A stretch of DNA of 24,587 nt from a virus (Duplodnaviria; Heunggongvirae; Uroviricota; Caudoviricetes). This document shows positions 12,009-17,297 of the stretch, piece by piece; position 1 is the stretch's first letter, and each line of letters opens with the position of its first letter. The notes under the pieces were generated by a model, which made no database searches, was not told the origin of the DNA, and worked only from the letters and a program-made list of their open reading frames with translations. A program made the translations under genes and the position numbers. Location: positions 1 to 24,587 of the IMG/VR virus record IMGVR_UViG_2724679236_000014; one strand, given 5' to 3'.

Positions 12009-14324
12009 TTAAATCCGAAGTGATGTAACTCTTCCGGTCGGTTTGACAATAGGGAATTGCTTAACAATAAAATAACCTCCGGCATCATTCGGGTGATCGT
12101 TGCCAGATTTTTTATCAGGCTCACCCTTGTCATCCCAGACCTGTTGCTCCAGAGATTCGGCATATACCGGACAACGCTTCACATTAACTTTATAGCGACG
12201 CTCACCATTGGCATTGCAGAACATTGCATTCATTGAGTTAACGCGATCTTTTACTGGCGGATTCGAACTGTTTACAACAACGTTAAAACCAGCCTGTTTA
12301 AGTTGAGCAATATCCGTCGCACTTGCGTTATTTGATTTTCTGGAATCCCCGGATGCATCAGGATAAATATAAATTTCCCTTACTTTCCGATAATCATTCC
12401 CGTCATATAACCAGAAGCGCTCTTTAATAATACGGATCATATCTGGTGTATCGTAAGCGTTAATGATTTCAGTTACTGCACATGGAAGCCCAAAACGTAA
12501 CACATGAACGACTCCAGCCATTTTTCCGACGTTAAAATCCATCCCGATATATATCGGCTCACCTGGCTGTTCCTCTTCTTCGCAATTATTCAGTTTTCGG
12601 TCAAACTGATGGTAAACAGTACCACTTGTCAGGTTAGTAAACTGTCCTCGAAGATAGGCTTTAATCAGCTCTGGAGGATATGACTCAAGGAGCGAGGGAA
12701 TGTAATCTGCTGGCAAATTCTTTTCATTATCGAAAGTAGATGCCTGTACCAGACCATACAGTGAGACCAGCTCTGTTTTTTCACGTACGGCTTTAACAAA
12801 CTGCTCGTAGACAAATTTGAATCCTTCCGGCGTGGTTGTAACGTCAATACCGTTGCGAAGTCCATCAACCTTATAACGCATACGCGCAATTATCTTGCGC
12901 CACGCTGTTCTGGCTTTTTCCTTCGGCAAAATGTCCAGTTCATCCACCAGCGCATTACCAATTTTGAAACCGACGATCGTTTGCGGCTTCTCCATCGATC
13001 TGCAGATAGTGGTTCCCCGATACTGACGTCCGTAATAAAAATGAACTTCTTTATTTCCCTCGTTAATTTTTACATTTAGCCCCCAGTCGGCAGCAACTTC
13101 TTCAACTGTGGGATAAAAAATATCGCGAATTTGTGGATATGTAGGCGCAAAATATCCCTGATTGATACCCGGATGCTCCCAAATCCCCTTACATATGCCA
13201 CCACACCCAACCCATGTTTTACCGCTATTGTGATGAATCGTCCCATCAGCAGTTACGTAGCAGTTATTATCCAATACCTGGAGGTCATAATATGGCTCGG
13301 CCTCCTGCAACAGTGTTACACTCAATATGTTGCAGGTTTCGATTAAGGAGTTTGGTTTTGACGCCTCTTGACCATTTAATTTGTGATTTAGCACATCCAG
13401 AACGTACCGTTTCAGAAGTTGCTTCTCTGGCAGGTTGTGACCGCAGTCATGTTTATCGTTGCATATCTCGTTATGGGTTAACGCTGAAACAACGCCAGAA
13501 GCCTGTCCCTCGAGAAAATGCGAAGGACAGAATCCTCGCTCTTGCTGATGGTCACCGTACGTCGGCAGAGATCGCGGCGGAAGTTGGTTGCACAGAAAAG
13601 CACGTTCAAAATATTCTCCGAATTCACAACGCCAACCGGCTCCCCCGTGGCGCCAGAAAGGGTGAGTTGAACCCCAGCTTTCGTGGTGGTCGAATTGTTG
13701 ATCTGGATGGATATGCCGTTGTTCCAGCGCCTGCTGACCATCCATATATGCGCAGAACAGGCATGATGTTTGAACATCGTTTGATCGCTGAAAAGAAGCT
13801 GGGGCGTTATCTGCTGCCATCAGAAGTTGTTGACCATATCGACGGGCTTCATCTGCATAACACCCCAAGTAATCTGCGAGTTTTTGATTCAAACGTGGAT
13901 CACCTGCGTGCAACGATTTCGGGACGGCGGCCAAACTGGTCAGAAGAAGGTTTTGCGAAGATGCAAATACCTTCACCGATTCGTCCAGACTATCCACAGA
14001 TCGATAGCTACCGTCAGCGCAAAAAACGCGGTGATGTCCGCTTGCTACAAATTCTCCTCGCTGCGTCACTACTCGGTATAGATTCGCCACACCTTTTGGG
14101 TACGCACCACCACTTAGCGAAAGCTCAAATCGATTATTCTCATCCGACCAAGATAAAACGCGCATTGGTCGAGTTATTTCCTGAATGGGTAGAATCCCAT
14201 TCTCTGTAACCACAGGCGTACTTCCCCTCAGGCAACCAAAACCAGCAACATAGGCTTTAAATTTATGATGCATAGAAAGAAATCGCGCCTGAGGCACATT
14301 AAGCGTCGGAGAGATCATCTTCAT
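12009..14324 (-). CDS. Terminase large subunit interrupted by an in-frame intein in the Walker A P-loop; predicted spliced product about 435 aa
   Basis: Exteins join as ...KAYVAGFG + SGKTW..., giving the Walker A motif AGFGSGKT; Walker B-like ALVDELD and nuclease-type IYIGMDFN and YPDASG motifs lie in the C-extein. Start is uncertain (ATG at 14324, 14318 or 14345); the supplied ORF's further N-terminal extension to 14756 overlaps terS in another frame and is not taken as coding. Confidence 0.85.
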   Translation of the reverse strand: MKMISPTLNVPQARFLSMHHKFKAYVAGFGCLRGSTPVVTENGILPIQEITRPMRVLSWSDENNRFELSLSGGAYPKGVANLYRVVTQRGEFVASGHHRVFCADGSYRSVDSLDESVKVFASSQNLLLTSLAAVPKSLHAGDPRLNQKLADYLGCYADEARRYGQQLLMAADNAPASFQRSNDVQTSCLFCAYMDGQQALEQRHIHPDQQFDHHESWGSTHPFWRHGGAGWRCEFGEYFERAFLCNQLPPRSLPTYGDHQQERGFCPSHFLEGQASGVVSALTHNEICNDKHDCGHNLPEKQLLKRYVLDVLNHKLNGQEASKPNSLIETCNILSVTLLQEAEPYYDLQVLDNNCYVTADGTIHHNSGKTWVGCGGICKGIWEHPGINQGYFAPTYPQIRDIFYPTVEEVAADWGLNVKINEGNKEVHFYYGRQYRGTTICRSMEKPQTIVGFKIGNALVDELDILPKEKARTAWRKIIARMRYKVDGLRNGIDVTTTPEGFKFVYEQFVKAVREKTELVSLYGLVQASTFDNEKNLPADYIPSLLESYPPELIKAYLRGQFTNLTSGTVYHQFDRKLNNCEEEEQPGEPIYIGMDFNVGKMAGVVHVLRFGLPCAVTEIINAYDTPDMIRIIKERFWLYDGNDYRKVREIYIYPDASGDSRKSNNASATDIAQLKQAGFNVVVNSSNPPVKDRVNSMNAMFCNANGERRYKVNVKRCPVYAESLEQQVWDDKGEPDKKSGNDHPNDAGGYFIVKQFPIVKPTGRVTSLRI
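13227..14234 (-). mobile_element. Intein (336 codons) inserted in the TerL P-loop
   Basis: Block A-like CLRGSTPVVTENG starts with Cys at 14234..14232; block B-like SGHHRVF; C-terminal blocks YYDLQVLDNNCYVTADGTIHHN end with His-Asn (Asn codon 13229..13227) and are followed by Ser(+1). Codons were checked against the plus-strand sequence. Confidence 0.8.
13358..14209 (+). CDS. HTH-HNH homing-endonuclease-like ORF encoded antisense inside the intein (TTG start, about 283 aa)
   Basis: Plus-strand translation contains HNH_3-like EHRLIAEKKLGRYLLPSEVVDHIDGLHLHNTPSNLRVFDSNVDH and two HTH-like segments; TAAGGAG (13344-13350) lies 7 nt upstream of an in-frame TTG at 13358. The C-terminal ~95 codons overlap the intein N-terminal blocks on the other strand and look like non-coding read-through. 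Confidence 0.55.
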   Translation: MTPLDHLICDLAHPERTVSEVASLAGCDRSHVYRCISRYGLTLKQRQKPVPRENAKDRILALADGHRTSAEIAAEVGCTEKHVQNILRIHNANRLPRGARKGELNPSFRGGRIVDLDGYAVVPAPADHPYMRRTGMMFEHRLIAEKKLGRYLLPSEVVDHIDGLHLHNTPSNLRVFDSNVDHLRATISGRRPNWSEEGFAKMQIPSPIRPDYPQIDSYRQRKKRGDVRLLQILLAASLLGIDSPHLLGTHHHLAKAQIDYSHPTKIKRALVELFPEWVESHSL

Positions 14325-15393
14325 CACACCTAACTCTGGCATCAACCACATTAATATTGATCGCCACAGGCTGGGGATGTTCATTACCCTCCACCGTTTC
14401 GATCTCTTTGCGCAGTTTCTGGTTTTCCATTCTGCGCCGTTCAATTTCCAGTTCCTGTAGTCGCTTATCTGCACATAATGCCCCGCCAGCGGAAAGCAAA
14501 CGCAATAATTCACGCCGGGCGGCAGCTTTATTCTCCAGCAGGATCTCAACGCCGAATTTTCCGAGCTTTGCTCCTGCATACAATTGCCGCGCATTTCCAT
14601 CAAGCAAAGTGGTATCAGCCATATAAAGCTGACCTGTACCTTCTCCACCGCATTTCGGACAGTCTGGATTTGGTATGGCGCTATCAACGAAACCGAGGCC
14701 ACCATATTCAGGTTCTGGTTTACCATCTTTGGATGCCTGCGCGGCAGCCCTGTCAAATTCTGCTATATCGCGCCACTGATAGAGGTGATTCTCCCCCCAG
14801 CAATAGCGACAGTTAACACGGCGAAATTGCGCAAGCTGATTGGGATCAGCCTGCACGATGGCCATCAACTGACTCACCAGTAAATCCAGGTCTGCGGTAT
14901 AGCGTTTCTGGTAATGATTGCGAAAGTAGCTGATGGCACGAAAAACCCTAGCATTTCTAAGCATACGACTGGCATTGCTGTTTGCTGTCGCACCTTGCCC
15001 CTCGTAACCAGCCAGGCGGTATGCCTCTGTCGGCTTTTTCCCCTGAGCAACCAACATGGCGAATTTTGCCTGCTGGTCAGAAATACCGAATTCATCGGGG
15101 CAAAACGAAATTTCTTCCGTGTCCCCCTCAATCAGGAGTGCATCGGATACAGCCTTTTTTTTCTGAGATTTTCCGTTTTGCTTTTGCGCAGTCTGCGCAG
15201 TTTTTTTTCGCGCACTTTTTTGCGCAGTTTTGCGCACTTCTGTCTGCGCATTTTTCGGAGGTTTCTTGATGTAACGACGGGCTGTTGCGTAATTCAGTCC
15301 CTTTGCTTCACACCACGCCACCGGAGATACACCGGAGCGGGTGTATTCAGCAATATATTCCTGCTGCAACGCCCCCCAGTCCGGTCTGCTCAT
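14299..15393 (-). CDS. Terminase small subunit-like protein (364 aa): N-terminal HTH, Lys/Arg-rich repeat linker, C-terminal CxxC...CxxC zinc ribbon
   Basis: Supplied ORF immediately upstream of and overlapping terL; N-terminus (EYIAEYTRSGVSPVAWCEAKGLNYATARRYI) resembles TerS DNA-binding domains; CRYC and CPKC pairs. Confidence 0.6.
   Translation of the reverse strand: MSRPDWGALQQEYIAEYTRSGVSPVAWCEAKGLNYATARRYIKKPPKNAQTEVRKTAQKSARKKTAQTAQKQNGKSQKKKAVSDALLIEGDTEEISFCPDEFGISDQQAKFAMLVAQGKKPTEAYRLAGYEGQGATANSNASRMLRNARVFRAISYFRNHYQKRYTADLDLLVSQLMAIVQADPNQLAQFRRVNCRYCWGENHLYQWRDIAEFDRAAAQASKDGKPEPEYGGLGFVDSAIPNPDCPKCGGEGTGQLYMADTTLLDGNARQLYAGAKLGKFGVEILLENKAAARRELLRLLSAGGALCADKRLQELEIERRRMENQKLRKEIETVEGNEHPQPVAININVVDARVRCDEDDLSDA
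15185..15250. repeat. Array of six (T/C)GCGCA palindromic hexamers separated by T-tracts, inside terS
   Basis: Hexamers start at 15185, 15194, 15209 (cgcgca), 15221, 15231 and 15245, spaced 9-15 bp apart with intervening T runs. Confidence 0.6.
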
Positions 15394-15396
15394 CAG

Positions 15397-15648
15397 TTAG
15401 TCCTGATTTTTATCCACCCTGAGTAATGCACGCAGAGCAAAGGCATCCCCTTTTCTGGCAAGCTTAAACAATGCCGCCCGTAGCTCGGCTTCACCTTTCG
15501 CTCTGCCCTTACGGATGGACGCATAAAAATTTGTCATTGTTTCCCGATTTTCTTTCAGTCTGTTCAGATCAACATCCAGAACGTCAGCGATTTGTTGTGC
15601 AGTCATCCGGCATGCTGCCAGAGACTCGACTTTCGAATACGGAATCAT
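15397..15648 (-). CDS. Small HTH-containing protein (83 aa), possibly packaging-associated or regulatory
   Basis: Supplied ORF ending 3 nt before the terS start; TAQQIADVLDVDLNRL resembles a helix-turn-helix. Confidence 0.4.
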   Translation of the reverse strand: MIPYSKVESLAACRMTAQQIADVLDVDLNRLKENRETMTNFYASIRKGRAKGEAELRAALFKLARKGDAFALRALLRVDKNQD

Positions 15649-16516
15649 TTATCACCCCCATTGATATGCAGGGTGTCTTCTTCCTGTATTTTTCGTGAAG
15701 GATTTTTACTGCAGCGTTGTTCCAGGTGACCTGATGGTGAATGCGTTTATGGCTGGCGCCCATCAGTGAGATTTTTACGCACGACGGCGCATACATGACG
15801 GAGTAAAAACTTTTAACGTAGGTACCGGAATCCAGATACAGTTCGGTCATTCCGCCGCTGTTTTTCTGCGTTTGCTTCTGCCCTAACTGGACAGCGCCAA
15901 TCGTCAAAAACAATTCACCACGACGACCGAGATTCGTGTATGTATTCACATCCTCGTTAATACGCCCCATAAATGAGAATGGTCGGTCAACAGAACAAAT
16001 AAAGCTGTTCATTGCTTTGCGTTTCACCCATGCAGCATGACCACCATTATCACCAAGAAAGTCTCCCCCCTGCGCCATAGCGATGGAAAGCGCAGGAATT
16101 GATTCGTAATACGCCAGCATTTCAGAAAGGATCGCGTCCAGTTTCCTTATCGGAAAATAAGCCTGGTCATAGTTGCGATCTACCCGAAACTGAAACTCGT
16201 GATAGTCGTCATCAAGCTGGATGTAGTATTTACACCCAACCTTTTTTGCCAGGCCCAAACAGGCATTCCTAGCATAAAAGATTGAACGTCGATCGCCAAA
16301 GTTGTCGGCTTCGTCAAAACGACTGGCGATATCGGCTTTGGAAAACACCAGCACCTGCTCACCAAATTCTGCTACGTACTGATGCTGGGTTTTATCTTCA
16401 TCATCAACAACGATAAAAATTTTCCCGGTATAGCCAGCACGACGCAACGTCCGGTAAGTCAGAACTTTGTCCGGTCGCCCGTGAGTCAGAATAAAGGCGC
16501 AAAAATCATCACGCAT
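15584..16516 (-). CDS. GT-A fold (family 2-like) glycosyltransferase-like protein with no obvious membrane segment (about 310 aa from ATG 16516)
   Basis: N-terminal FILTHGRPDKV...IFIVVDDEDK resembles the GT2 signature (hhhPTYNR...IVVDDGS); a DDD (DxD-like) motif sits in YIQLDDDYHEF. The ATG at 16516 follows GAGGAGGAG and the ParB-like stop (TAATATG). Confidence 0.45.
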   Translation of the reverse strand: MRDDFCAFILTHGRPDKVLTYRTLRRAGYTGKIFIVVDDEDKTQHQYVAEFGEQVLVFSKADIASRFDEADNFGDRRSIFYARNACLGLAKKVGCKYYIQLDDDYHEFQFRVDRNYDQAYFPIRKLDAILSEMLAYYESIPALSIAMAQGGDFLGDNGGHAAWVKRKAMNSFICSVDRPFSFMGRINEDVNTYTNLGRRGELFLTIGAVQLGQKQTQKNSGGMTELYLDSGTYVKSFYSVMYAPSCVKISLMGASHKRIHHQVTWNNAAVKILHEKYRKKTPCISMGVINDSVFESRVSGSMPDDCTTNR

Positions 16517-16517
16517 A

Positions 16518-17297
16518 TTACTCCTCCTCGCCATGCATGATCTCCACCATGCGCTGCGTCATCCTGACAAACCCATTTTCAATTGCCTGCTGATAATCAA
16601 TGATCACCAGAGCCGATTCCTCAAAAAGGCTCTGAATTTCAGCGGGGGCGTGAGCGTAATAGTCCGCGATTCTGCTGAAATTAAACACCGTGTGACGTTC
16701 TGCCGCGCACAGAAGGAATTTCTCAATATCAGGATCAAGGGACACCGAACGTATCCGGCTGATCAGCTCCTGAGTTTTCGTATCGTCGTACAGTTCACAG
16801 ATATCCGGTTTATCGCCTGACGGCTCATAAACAGGCGTATCAATTTTCGTCGTATACGGCTCCTCCTCATTTCCTGTACCAGGCAAAATATCCGTCAACA
16901 GTTCATCAATTTCTGTCGGGCTGAAGCCTGTCAGGGAGACATCAAAATCAGCATTAATTAGGTCCGACAGCTCCATCCGTAACAGATCTTCATCCCAGCC
17001 AGCATTCATCGGCAGGCGATTATCTGCCAGACGGTACGCCTTTTTCTGATCATCCGTCAGACCAGACAGAACGATGACCGGAACGAAATCCATTTTGAGC
17101 ACTTCAGCCGCCATAACGCGACCGTGACCCGCAATAACTTCGCCTTTTTCATCAATCAGCACCGGATTAGTCCAGCCAAATTGCTTAATGCTTTCTACCA
17201 GTTGCGTCACCTGCTCAGGGCTGTGTGTCCTGGCATTGTGTGCATACGGAGACAGTTCTTGTAACGGGCGATAGACGATCTTCAATTTCTCGCTCAT
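16518..17297 (-). CDS. ParB-like nuclease domain protein (259 aa)
   Basis: N-terminal ParB/Srx-type motifs: YAHNARTH and GHGRVMAA (GxxRxxA box); acidic C-terminus; GAGG RBS upstream of the ATG. Confidence 0.75.
   Translation of the reverse strand: MSEKLKIVYRPLQELSPYAHNARTHSPEQVTQLVESIKQFGWTNPVLIDEKGEVIAGHGRVMAAEVLKMDFVPVIVLSGLTDDQKKAYRLADNRLPMNAGWDEDLLRMELSDLINADFDVSLTGFSPTEIDELLTDILPGTGNEEEPYTTKIDTPVYEPSGDKPDICELYDDTKTQELISRIRSVSLDPDIEKFLLCAAERHTVFNFSRIADYYAHAPAEIQSLFEESALVIIDYQQAIENGFVRMTQRMVEIMHGEEE

Follow-up and report, generated by a model that had tools for sequence, protein, structure and literature searches.

The stretch of DNA analysed here (hereafter the window) comprises the 24,587 nucleotides (nt) of the IMG/VR virus record IMGVR_UViG_2724679236_000014, from a virus of the Caudoviricetes. 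Its minus strand contains the gene of the large terminase subunit (terL, product TerL), which by Pfam belongs to the Terminase_6N family (8e-31) and also matches Terminase_6C, and whose Walker A motif is split by an in-frame insert with the properties of a class-1 intein. The plus strand of the same insert carries an open reading frame (ORF) for an HNH-type endonuclease. The features of the terminase frame are listed below, the start of terL at 14318 having been deduced from the 20-nt overlap of terS and terL in an intein-free homologue.

12009..14318, minus strand: terL precursor ORF, 769 amino acids (aa) plus stop, made of a 28-aa N-extein, a 336-aa intein and a 405-aa C-extein.
14235..14318, minus strand: N-extein, 28 aa, whose last residues, AGFG, are the first half of the Walker A motif.
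13227..14234, minus strand: class-1 intein, 336 codons, from Cys1 to Asn336.
13935..14234, minus strand: N-terminal splicing module, about aa 1-100, with block A CLRGSTPVVTENG and block B SGHH, including the invariant His68.
13344..13934, minus strand: intein interior, about aa 101-297, a translated unconstrained spacer that is the reverse complement of the HNH gene.
13227..13343, minus strand: C-terminal splicing module, aa 298-336, with blocks F and G, YYDLQVLDNNCYVTADGTIHHN.
12012..13226, minus strand: C-extein, 405 aa, opening with Ser+1 and the remainder of the Walker A motif, SGKT.

The insert in the Walker A motif of TerL

Inteins in the P-loop of TerL are an established class, and a preliminary description of this DNA had proposed that one of them occupies this terL. 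The translation of the precursor starts with MISPTLNVPQARFLSMHHKFKAYVAGFG, followed by Cys1 of the intein. The insert comprises 336 stop-free codons, in frame between AGFG and SGKT, and reads CLRGSTPVVTENG...SGHHRVF...YYDLQVLDNNCYVTADGTIHHN, after which the terminase continues with SGKTW. Hence, a direct reading of 13227-14234 on the minus strand bears out the length of the insert, its initial Cys, the SGHHRVF stretch and the terminal Asn followed by Ser, as they had been described. The claim that excision joins AYVAGFG to SGKTW holds as well, since the predicted 433-aa spliced TerL can be aligned in a single block without gaps to its intein-free counterpart in phage vB_EcoS-473R12, with identity at 422 of the 433 residues. 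At the DNA level, ten phages with an approximately 93% identical terL match the window in two pieces, with exactly 1008 nt left out, so that the exteins are joined without a gap at the P-loop. The empty site (a slash marks the junction) is GCTGGTTTTGGC/TCGGGCAAAACA, with codons GCT GGT TTT GGC/TCG GGC AAA ACA, and the empty allele of 473R12 carries GCTGGTTTTGGCTCGGGCAAAACATGG. The filled site is GGT/TGC...AAT/AGCGGTAAAACA, where the codons after the junction are AGC GGT AAA ACA. The empty allele was found in the 10 phages and in about 784 Escherichia coli genomes. On either side of the insertion the filled and the empty allele (locus L001) use different synonymous codons, Ser+1 being AGC versus TCG and the neighbouring Gly GGT versus GGC (13224-13229 and 14232-14237); these differences could reflect co-conversion, or changes of the target site that shield the filled allele.

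The assignment of the insert as an intein is supported by its precise in-frame position, by the canonical residues, by matches at the level of family profiles and by a model with the Hint fold. Cys1, His68, His335 and Asn336 are each present in 57 of 57 intein relatives and Asp317 in 56 of them, while the +1 residue, among 90 loci, is Ser in 87, Cys in two and Thr in one. Block B of the window intein is S65-G-H-H68, and the position usually given as T/S is variable in the family (S 28, T 9, A 11, N 8, L 1). At E < 0.01, 47 of the 57 family members match the Pfam profile Intein_splicing, the best of them with 6.4e-16. The family profile in turn matches, with its N-terminal as well as its C-terminal module, inteins of solved structure, namely NpuDnaB (1.4e-8), Spl DnaX, Ssp DnaB and gp41-1. 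In the AlphaFold (AF2) model of the intein, built on an 18-row protein alignment, the predicted local distance difference test (pLDDT) score is 91-98 for aa 1-95 and 93-98 for aa 298-336, and falls below 50 for aa 149-293. The N-terminal module is beta-rich and aligns by profile to the DnaB and DnaX mini-inteins, and the top 50 Foldseek matches of the model in the PDB are all inteins or Hint domains (e.g. 4o1r, root-mean-square deviation 1.6 Å). The two terminal modules are therefore predicted to form a Hint fold, and the interior to be disordered. Relative to the mini-inteins Npu/Ssp DnaB, Spl DnaX and gp41-1, the splicing module is homologous in sequence and in predicted fold, and the difference resides in the loop, which is short in the mini-inteins and holds about 200 translated antisense codons in the window intein.

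The composition of the interior had been described as rich in Trp, Cys, His and Arg. The enrichment is real for His (6.8%) and Cys (4.2%), and extends to Gln (8.4%) and Leu, whereas Trp (1.6%) and Arg (5.8%) are not enriched with respect to the C-extein. As the same description stated, the intein frame contains no recognisable endonuclease motif: Pfam and PHROG scans of that frame returned no nuclease family, nor did Pfam among the 57 family members, and an in-frame endonuclease was rejected on this basis. A group I intron carrying an HNH gene was rejected too, because terL keeps one continuous frame and what is inserted is a Hint domain. The only residues of the interior that appear conserved in the intein frame, Y126, R131 and G134, sit precisely across from the catalytic motif of the HNH protein, EVVDHIDGLHLHN, and their conservation is the antisense shadow of that motif.

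The HNH gene on the opposite strand and its recurrence

The features of the plus strand within the insert are the following.

13292..14209, plus strand: predicted gene of an HNH homing endonuclease, 305 aa and a TAA stop, lying antisense within the intein.
13280..13284, plus strand: Shine-Dalgarno sequence GGAGG, 7 nt upstream of the HNH ATG and within the codons of intein block F.
13382-13474 and 13532-13624, plus strand: two helix-turn-helix (HTH) modules of the HNH protein (Pfam HTH_29 and HTH_28; AF2 helices).
13775..13885, plus strand: HNH (beta-beta-alpha-metal) catalytic core, containing EVVDHIDGLHLHNTPSNLRVF (Pfam HNH_3).

By profile searches, the plus strand of the intein interior is a true gene for an HNH endonuclease. 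The encoded protein hits PHROG 10730, 'HNH endonuclease' (4.7e-49), and scores 25.4 bits with Pfam HNH_3, whose cut-off is 24.8; HTH_29 and HTH_28 are also above their curated cut-offs. Homologues of the protein number 389 at E <= 1e-5, and residues D181, H182, D184, H189, N190, N201 and H204 are invariant in 63 HNH sequences. The AF2 model of the protein (mean pLDDT 84) contains the two HTH modules, the beta-beta-alpha core and a helical C-terminal domain. This last domain, aa 239-303 (14006-14200; pLDDT 81-92), probably binds DNA and is encoded opposite the N-terminal module of the intein. Since the interior is the reverse complement of this gene, the odd, motif-less composition of the intein frame finds its explanation. 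An in-frame ATG further upstream, at 13214, would give a 331-aa ORF (13214-14209) nearly coextensive with the insert, which is the form annotated by RefSeq. The ATG at 13292 is the likely start, to judge from the GGAGG placed 7 nt before it and from the 305-aa form that gene callers also choose elsewhere.

The exhaustive search with the HNH protein gave 46 cluster representatives at E <= 1e-30 and 1,985 at E <= 1e-10. Most of the weaker matches end near query residue 225 and so lack the C-terminal domain that overlaps the splicing module of the intein. Free-standing phage endonucleases of this kind (about 2,000 clusters at E <= 1e-10, for example L024 2743-3678) share the HTH-HTH-HNH core and differ in not being nested in an intein, as is seen in the distant relative L024, which has none around the gene.

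When either product was used as a tblastn query, the same DNA was found in eight Pectobacterium/Dickeya phages and in Pseudoalteromonas phage PHS3, with 40-50% identity in the HNH frame and about 31%, from end to end and on the opposite strand, in the intein frame. In all of them TerL has the form ...G/C...HHN/(S or T)GKS, and an ORF of 232-236 aa for the HNH protein is nested antisense. The search with the HNH protein retrieved 97 loci, 17 of them genomic and the other 80 from among 291 viral loci. The strand opposite the HNH gene is open across the full HNH match in 95 of the 97, with a frame relation that is always position 1 opposite position 1, and clean boundaries of the type G/C...HN/(S, C or T)GK(S or T) fall inside the Walker A motif in 90. 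The exteins span different TerL lineages (GPVG/SGKS, AGFG/SGKT, GGRG/SGKS and others), of both the Terminase_6N and the Terminase_3 types. On these sequence comparisons, the combination of intein and antisense HNH gene is a trait of a family and not an accident. Moreover, the arrangement is not confined to actinobacteriophages, as it extends to at least 291 viral contigs and 389 protein clusters (Proteobacteria, Planctomycetes and others) and to at least two TerL families. In a collection of 5.8 billion proteins, matches to the intein frame amounted to only six proteins, or 17 with the family profile; gene callers retain the ORF of the HNH protein and break up terL.

The cassette was also observed on L015, a 2,987-nt contig in the bin of a Thermoplasmata archaeon metagenome-assembled genome (MAG), on L010 and L018 (Planctomycetes MAGs) and on L014 (an actinobacterial MAG); the short contig L015 could be mis-binned viral DNA. 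A 132-aa protein of Yersinia enterocolitica (P0131; 275 contigs), labelled 'ISSod4 transposase', consists in its first ~105 residues of the N-terminal splicing module of the intein, 87% identical to that of the window, and the unrelated sequence after the module suggests the insertion of an insertion sequence into a copy of the intein.

Selection on the two strands

The preliminary description had supposed that the interior is merely kept free of stops. In simulations where the HNH protein was fixed and its synonymous codons were redrawn, 6-9 stops were expected in the intein frame and none was seen (p <= 0.001 in each case). The test was run on four members representing three divergent lineages, namely the window, Ymer, Taid and PHS3, and shows that the open intein frame is not due to chance. 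Which strand is selected in each part of the insert was addressed with the ratio of non-synonymous to synonymous differences (pN/pS), from Nei-Gojobori estimates summed over 14 pairs.

Intein aa 1-13: intein-frame pN/pS 0.10, HNH frame not constrained; intein frame selected.
Intein aa 14-100: intein-frame pN/pS 0.49, HNH-frame pN/pS 0.73, with pS of 0.06 and 0.046 versus 0.23-0.36 elsewhere.
Intein interior: intein-frame pN/pS 1.98, HNH-frame pN/pS 0.18; HNH frame selected.
Last 45 aa of the intein: intein-frame pN/pS 0.20, HNH-frame pN/pS 2.06; intein frame selected.

The ends of the intein are under purifying selection in the intein frame, and the interior is constrained in the HNH frame only, which agrees with the idea of a sequence that has only to remain open. 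The same zones were recovered from 55 variable sites among four Pectobacterium phages, and also from the codon-position entropy of 57 divergent sequences, where intein position 3 carries the wobble in the ends, and HNH position 3 carries it across from the HNH core. The nonsense-looking interior would thus come from the translation of antisense DNA, and the self-splicing domain would tolerate it as a loop of about 200 disordered residues.

These results bear on two other explanations of the locus. A conventional intein with a decayed in-frame endonuclease, accompanied by a functionless plus-strand ORF of chance origin, would be in keeping with the missing nuclease motif of the intein frame and with the fact that long antisense ORFs can arise by chance. 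It is nevertheless exceedingly improbable: the plus-strand product exceeds the curated HNH and HTH cut-offs, its 389 homologues are accompanied by invariant catalytic residues, its ORF has a consensus ribosome-binding site and, on the same DNA, its frame shows a pN/pS of 0.18 where the intein frame shows 1.98. Besides, the decay of an in-frame domain would not explain why, in 95 of 97 loci, the other strand has stayed open and conserved.

The second explanation, that a free-standing HNH gene landed in terL and destroyed it, turning it into a pseudogene, is the one conveyed by existing records. In E. coli MEI003 (NZ_CP071263; L002 1823-4110) RefSeq labels terL a pseudogene, 'incomplete; missing N-terminus', and gives a gene annotation to the antisense HNH ORF alone, and the GenBank record of phage PHS3 (L004 2541-4519) shows a truncated terL together with the HNH gene. 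In the records of the Ymer genus, the 754-aa precursor is called 'hypothetical protein'. A destroyed terL is, however, very improbable, as its frame runs unbroken through an insert for which 6-9 stops are expected, the insert starts with Cys and ends with HN/Ser, retains the invariant splicing residues and the predicted Hint fold, and purifying selection in the terL frame acts on its splice modules. Moreover, Pectobacterium phages of the Ymer genus, which went through three rounds of plaque purification, have a strictly lytic cycle and grow to 1e9-8e10 plaque-forming units per ml (PMC11445585), carry the cassette in their only terL. Since these phages are viable, their interrupted terminase would have to become functional, and splicing would be the sole evident route. 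Mis-annotation of this kind affects estimates of phage completeness and terminase-based phylogenies.

The region between the selected ends and the interior behaves differently and corresponds to the following candidate feature.

13935..14206, both strands: candidate dual-coding zone, N-terminal splicing module of the intein (minus strand) over the helical C-terminal domain of the HNH protein (plus strand).

About 87 codons of the N-terminal splicing module overlap here with the C-terminal domain of the HNH protein, and both frames look constrained. Over intein aa 14-100, the codon-position entropy is flat, without any wobble position. A control is provided by a mini-intein of 135 aa (P0126; L105 1498-1902, plus strand), which occupies the same Walker A position with the same motifs as the window intein (GGLG/CMRDSTP...TIHHN/SGKS) and has no HNH gene. 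Its corresponding antisense frame contains eight stops, and within the aa 14-100 stretch it has three antisense stops versus 3.5 expected, while the HNH-bearing inteins keep this stretch open. The reciprocal shuffle of stop codons over aa 14-100 gave modest p values, 0.01-0.17 per lineage, in a zone that includes the HNH gene's own stop in many members; therefore, the case for dual coding leans on the depressed synonymous rates, the flat entropy and the mini-intein control. In 75 of 78 unique inteins, no more than 49 nt separate the stop of the HNH gene from intein codon 1. A distant branch (L019-L021, P0128-P0137), with a TerL of the Terminase_3 type and the form GGRG/C...NHN/SGKS, departs from this rule: in L019-L021 the HNH stop is 205-241 nt inside the intein, so that the overlap with the N-terminal splicing module is absent.

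On balance, we lean slightly towards true antiparallel dual coding of the ~270 nt at 13935-14206, in which the N-half of the Hint domain and a folded C-terminal domain of the HNH protein would both be selected, the tail of the HNH gene having been overprinted on the intein. In that event, the overlap of a catalytic Hint module and a conserved endonuclease domain would be an instance, occurring in nature, of antiparallel dual coding in which both strands have a clear functional read-out. It could serve to test models of how overlapping genes evolve, as well as the view that pre-existing mini-inteins are invaded by free-standing endonuclease genes. If dual coding is true, the family would also be the most abundant antisense-endonuclease intein known, and a largely invisible one, given that gene callers retain the ORF of the HNH protein at the expense of the terminase precursor.

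Mobility, proposed mechanism and related systems

Copies of the cassette in an Enterobacter prophage and in a viral contig are 92.5-93.2% identical to that of the window, while the C-exteins of their terL genes are just 71% identical, and the terL nearest to that of the window (93%) is empty. Even at low stringency, the cassette was found in only one of 5,426 complete E. coli genomes, in contrast with the ~784 that have the empty allele. The presence of inserts 93% identical in terL genes 71% identical, with the nearest terL empty, indicates from sequence comparison that the cassette is mobile and has been transferred horizontally. Stages of a homing cycle can be recognised: an intact state (76 of 78), an HNH gene in decay within an open intein (L097) and the mini-intein of L105. 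In L097 (2876-3547, minus strand) the intein is shortened to 224 aa, and an HNH remnant of 170 aa is open and lacks the HTH region and the start codon; it appears to be at the stage of a decaying endonuclease with the intein frame intact.

The following mechanism is proposed. The terL mRNA, read from the minus strand, would be translated into the 769-aa precursor, in which the N-terminal (~aa 1-100) and C-terminal (aa 298-336) Hint modules would fold together, the ~200 intervening residues, that is the translated reverse complement of the HNH gene, being a mere disordered tether. Class-1 cis-splicing, by acyl shift at Cys1, attack by Ser+1 and cyclisation of Asn336, would free the intein and restore AGFG-SGKT, giving an active TerL of 433 aa. 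Transcription of the plus strand and translation from the ATG at 13292, behind GGAGG, would produce the 305-aa HTH-HTH-HNH protein. This protein would cut or nick intein-free terL near the codons of the P-loop, and repair off the intein-bearing copy would move the whole cassette, that is, homing would occur. We consider it about 85% probable that the element is a mobile class-1 Walker A intein that splices in cis with a junk loop and homes by means of a separate, antisense-encoded HNH gene.

Several points weigh against this interpretation. Splicing, antisense transcription and expression of the HNH gene, and the target of its product and cleavage at the empty site, are inferred from sequence and models. 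The window intein alone scores 18.5 bits against Pfam Intein_splicing, with a cut-off of 35.8, so that it is assigned to the inteins by way of the family profile, its motifs and its predicted fold. A Foldseek search of the PDB with the whole HNH model gave no significant fold match, just a weak likeness to bipartite HTH proteins (Mos1/Tc3), so that the identity of the HNH protein rests on sequence profiles. A simple scan of 12700-14500 found no sigma-70 consensus promoter for the HNH gene, and the 14 pairs summed for pN/pS include some that are not independent in phylogeny. Finally, the window may come from a defective prophage, so that this particular copy need not be active.

The intein could also splice while the HNH protein is not its homing enzyme, having instead a role in packaging, as do the small HNH proteins associated with the terminase in HK97-like cos phages, or being a hitch-hiker with another target that uses the intein as a safe harbour. 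HNH proteins encoded next to the terminase can assist cos cleavage (PMC3592412). This explanation has little probability, for the closest relatives package their DNA without the HNH gene (the 10 phages and ~784 prophages with the empty allele), and the intein and the HNH gene always travel together, moving between diverged terL genes as one unit. The build of several HTH modules plus HNH_3 fits site-specific homing enzymes, not the packaging HNH proteins of ~100 aa. The persistence of the intein where the HNH gene has decayed (L097) or is absent (L105) is as predicted by a homing cycle. A packaging-type HNH as such was judged unlikely, given that the nearest relatives lack the gene.

The mobile intein with its antisense HNH gene belongs, by its sequence features, to the same kind as the known and rare antisense-endonuclease inteins, with an HNH-type nuclease that is not among the sub-types described. 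Gosselin, Arsenault and Gogarten (bioRxiv 10.1101/2025.01.02.630785) reported actinobacteriophage inteins with the endonuclease as a separate ORF, either an antisense LAGLIDADG, an antisense VSR-like or a frame-3 EndoVII-like enzyme, and listed HNH in frame only. According to the references cited there, antisense LAGLIDADG inteins were first noted by Gorbalenya 1998 and Gogarten 2002. The same authors described the interiors of such inteins as unfoldable, argued that free-standing endonuclease genes invade inteins and predicted that pipelines would miss them. The window intein likewise has an antisense ORF within an open intein frame, and its endonuclease is of neither the LAGLIDADG nor the VSR-like type. 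With the antisense-LAGLIDADG inteins (Synechocystis DnaX, Chloroflexus SpoVR-like, actinobacteriophage minor capsid and TerL) it shares an endonuclease ORF opposite the open intein frame, an unfoldable interior and a sporadic distribution incongruent with the exteins. It differs from them in the HNH_3 and HTH modules and in its hosts, which are phages of Proteobacteria and other non-actinobacterial lineages, with hundreds of copies. With the antisense VSR-like and out-of-frame EndoVII-like inteins of actinobacteriophages it has in common a non-canonical, two-ORF architecture, often in TerL, and a proposed origin by invasion of an intein by a free-standing endonuclease gene; the nuclease superfamily is a different one. 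HNH would thus be a fourth nuclease type among the homing endonucleases encoded antisense or out of frame in inteins.

Two further systems are comparable, both taken from sources that cite the original work. Inteins whose HNH is read in frame, from work of 1997, are likewise associated with an HNH-type homing endonuclease, but as described there the HNH is part of the intein polypeptide, whereas here the enzyme comes from the other strand and the intein frame has no HNH motif. The fractured genes of Dassa et al. 2009 likewise have a separate endonuclease ORF at the point of the intein where the endonuclease is inserted. In those, by the citing account, host gene and intein lie divided over two trans-splicing ORFs, whereas here the frame is continuous and cis-splicing is expected. 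Full-text literature searches, with subscription-only literature outside their reach, found no report of an antisense-HNH intein.

As to the state of the copy in the window, the architecture may be as proposed and yet this copy may be a relic that sits in a defective prophage and has already lost its ability to splice or its nuclease activity. The 24.6 kb of the window map onto ~37 kb of the nearest phages in eight pieces, a YqaJ-like ORF is truncated, and the cassette has nine differences from MEI003, mostly non-synonymous in at least one frame. Against a relic, neither protein has lost any of its catalytic residues, both frames remain open, and copies 98-99% identical are present on four other viral contigs; we give the relic a small but real chance. 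The prophage may carry deletions in its early region. The distal part of the window (20060-24587) contains a Q-antiterminator-like gene (20060-20602), the YqaJ-like ORF (22193-22627), which matches only the C-terminal half of its family, and an integrase gene (23352-24587).

Just upstream of terS, in the sense of terL, there are two adjoining genes on the minus strand, for a TET-associated glycosyltransferase (Pfam TAGT, 1.5e-35; 15584-16534) and for a protein with a ParB_N domain (1.9e-5, just under the cut-off; 16518-17297). We take these to be of the kind found in phage cassettes for DNA base hypermodification.

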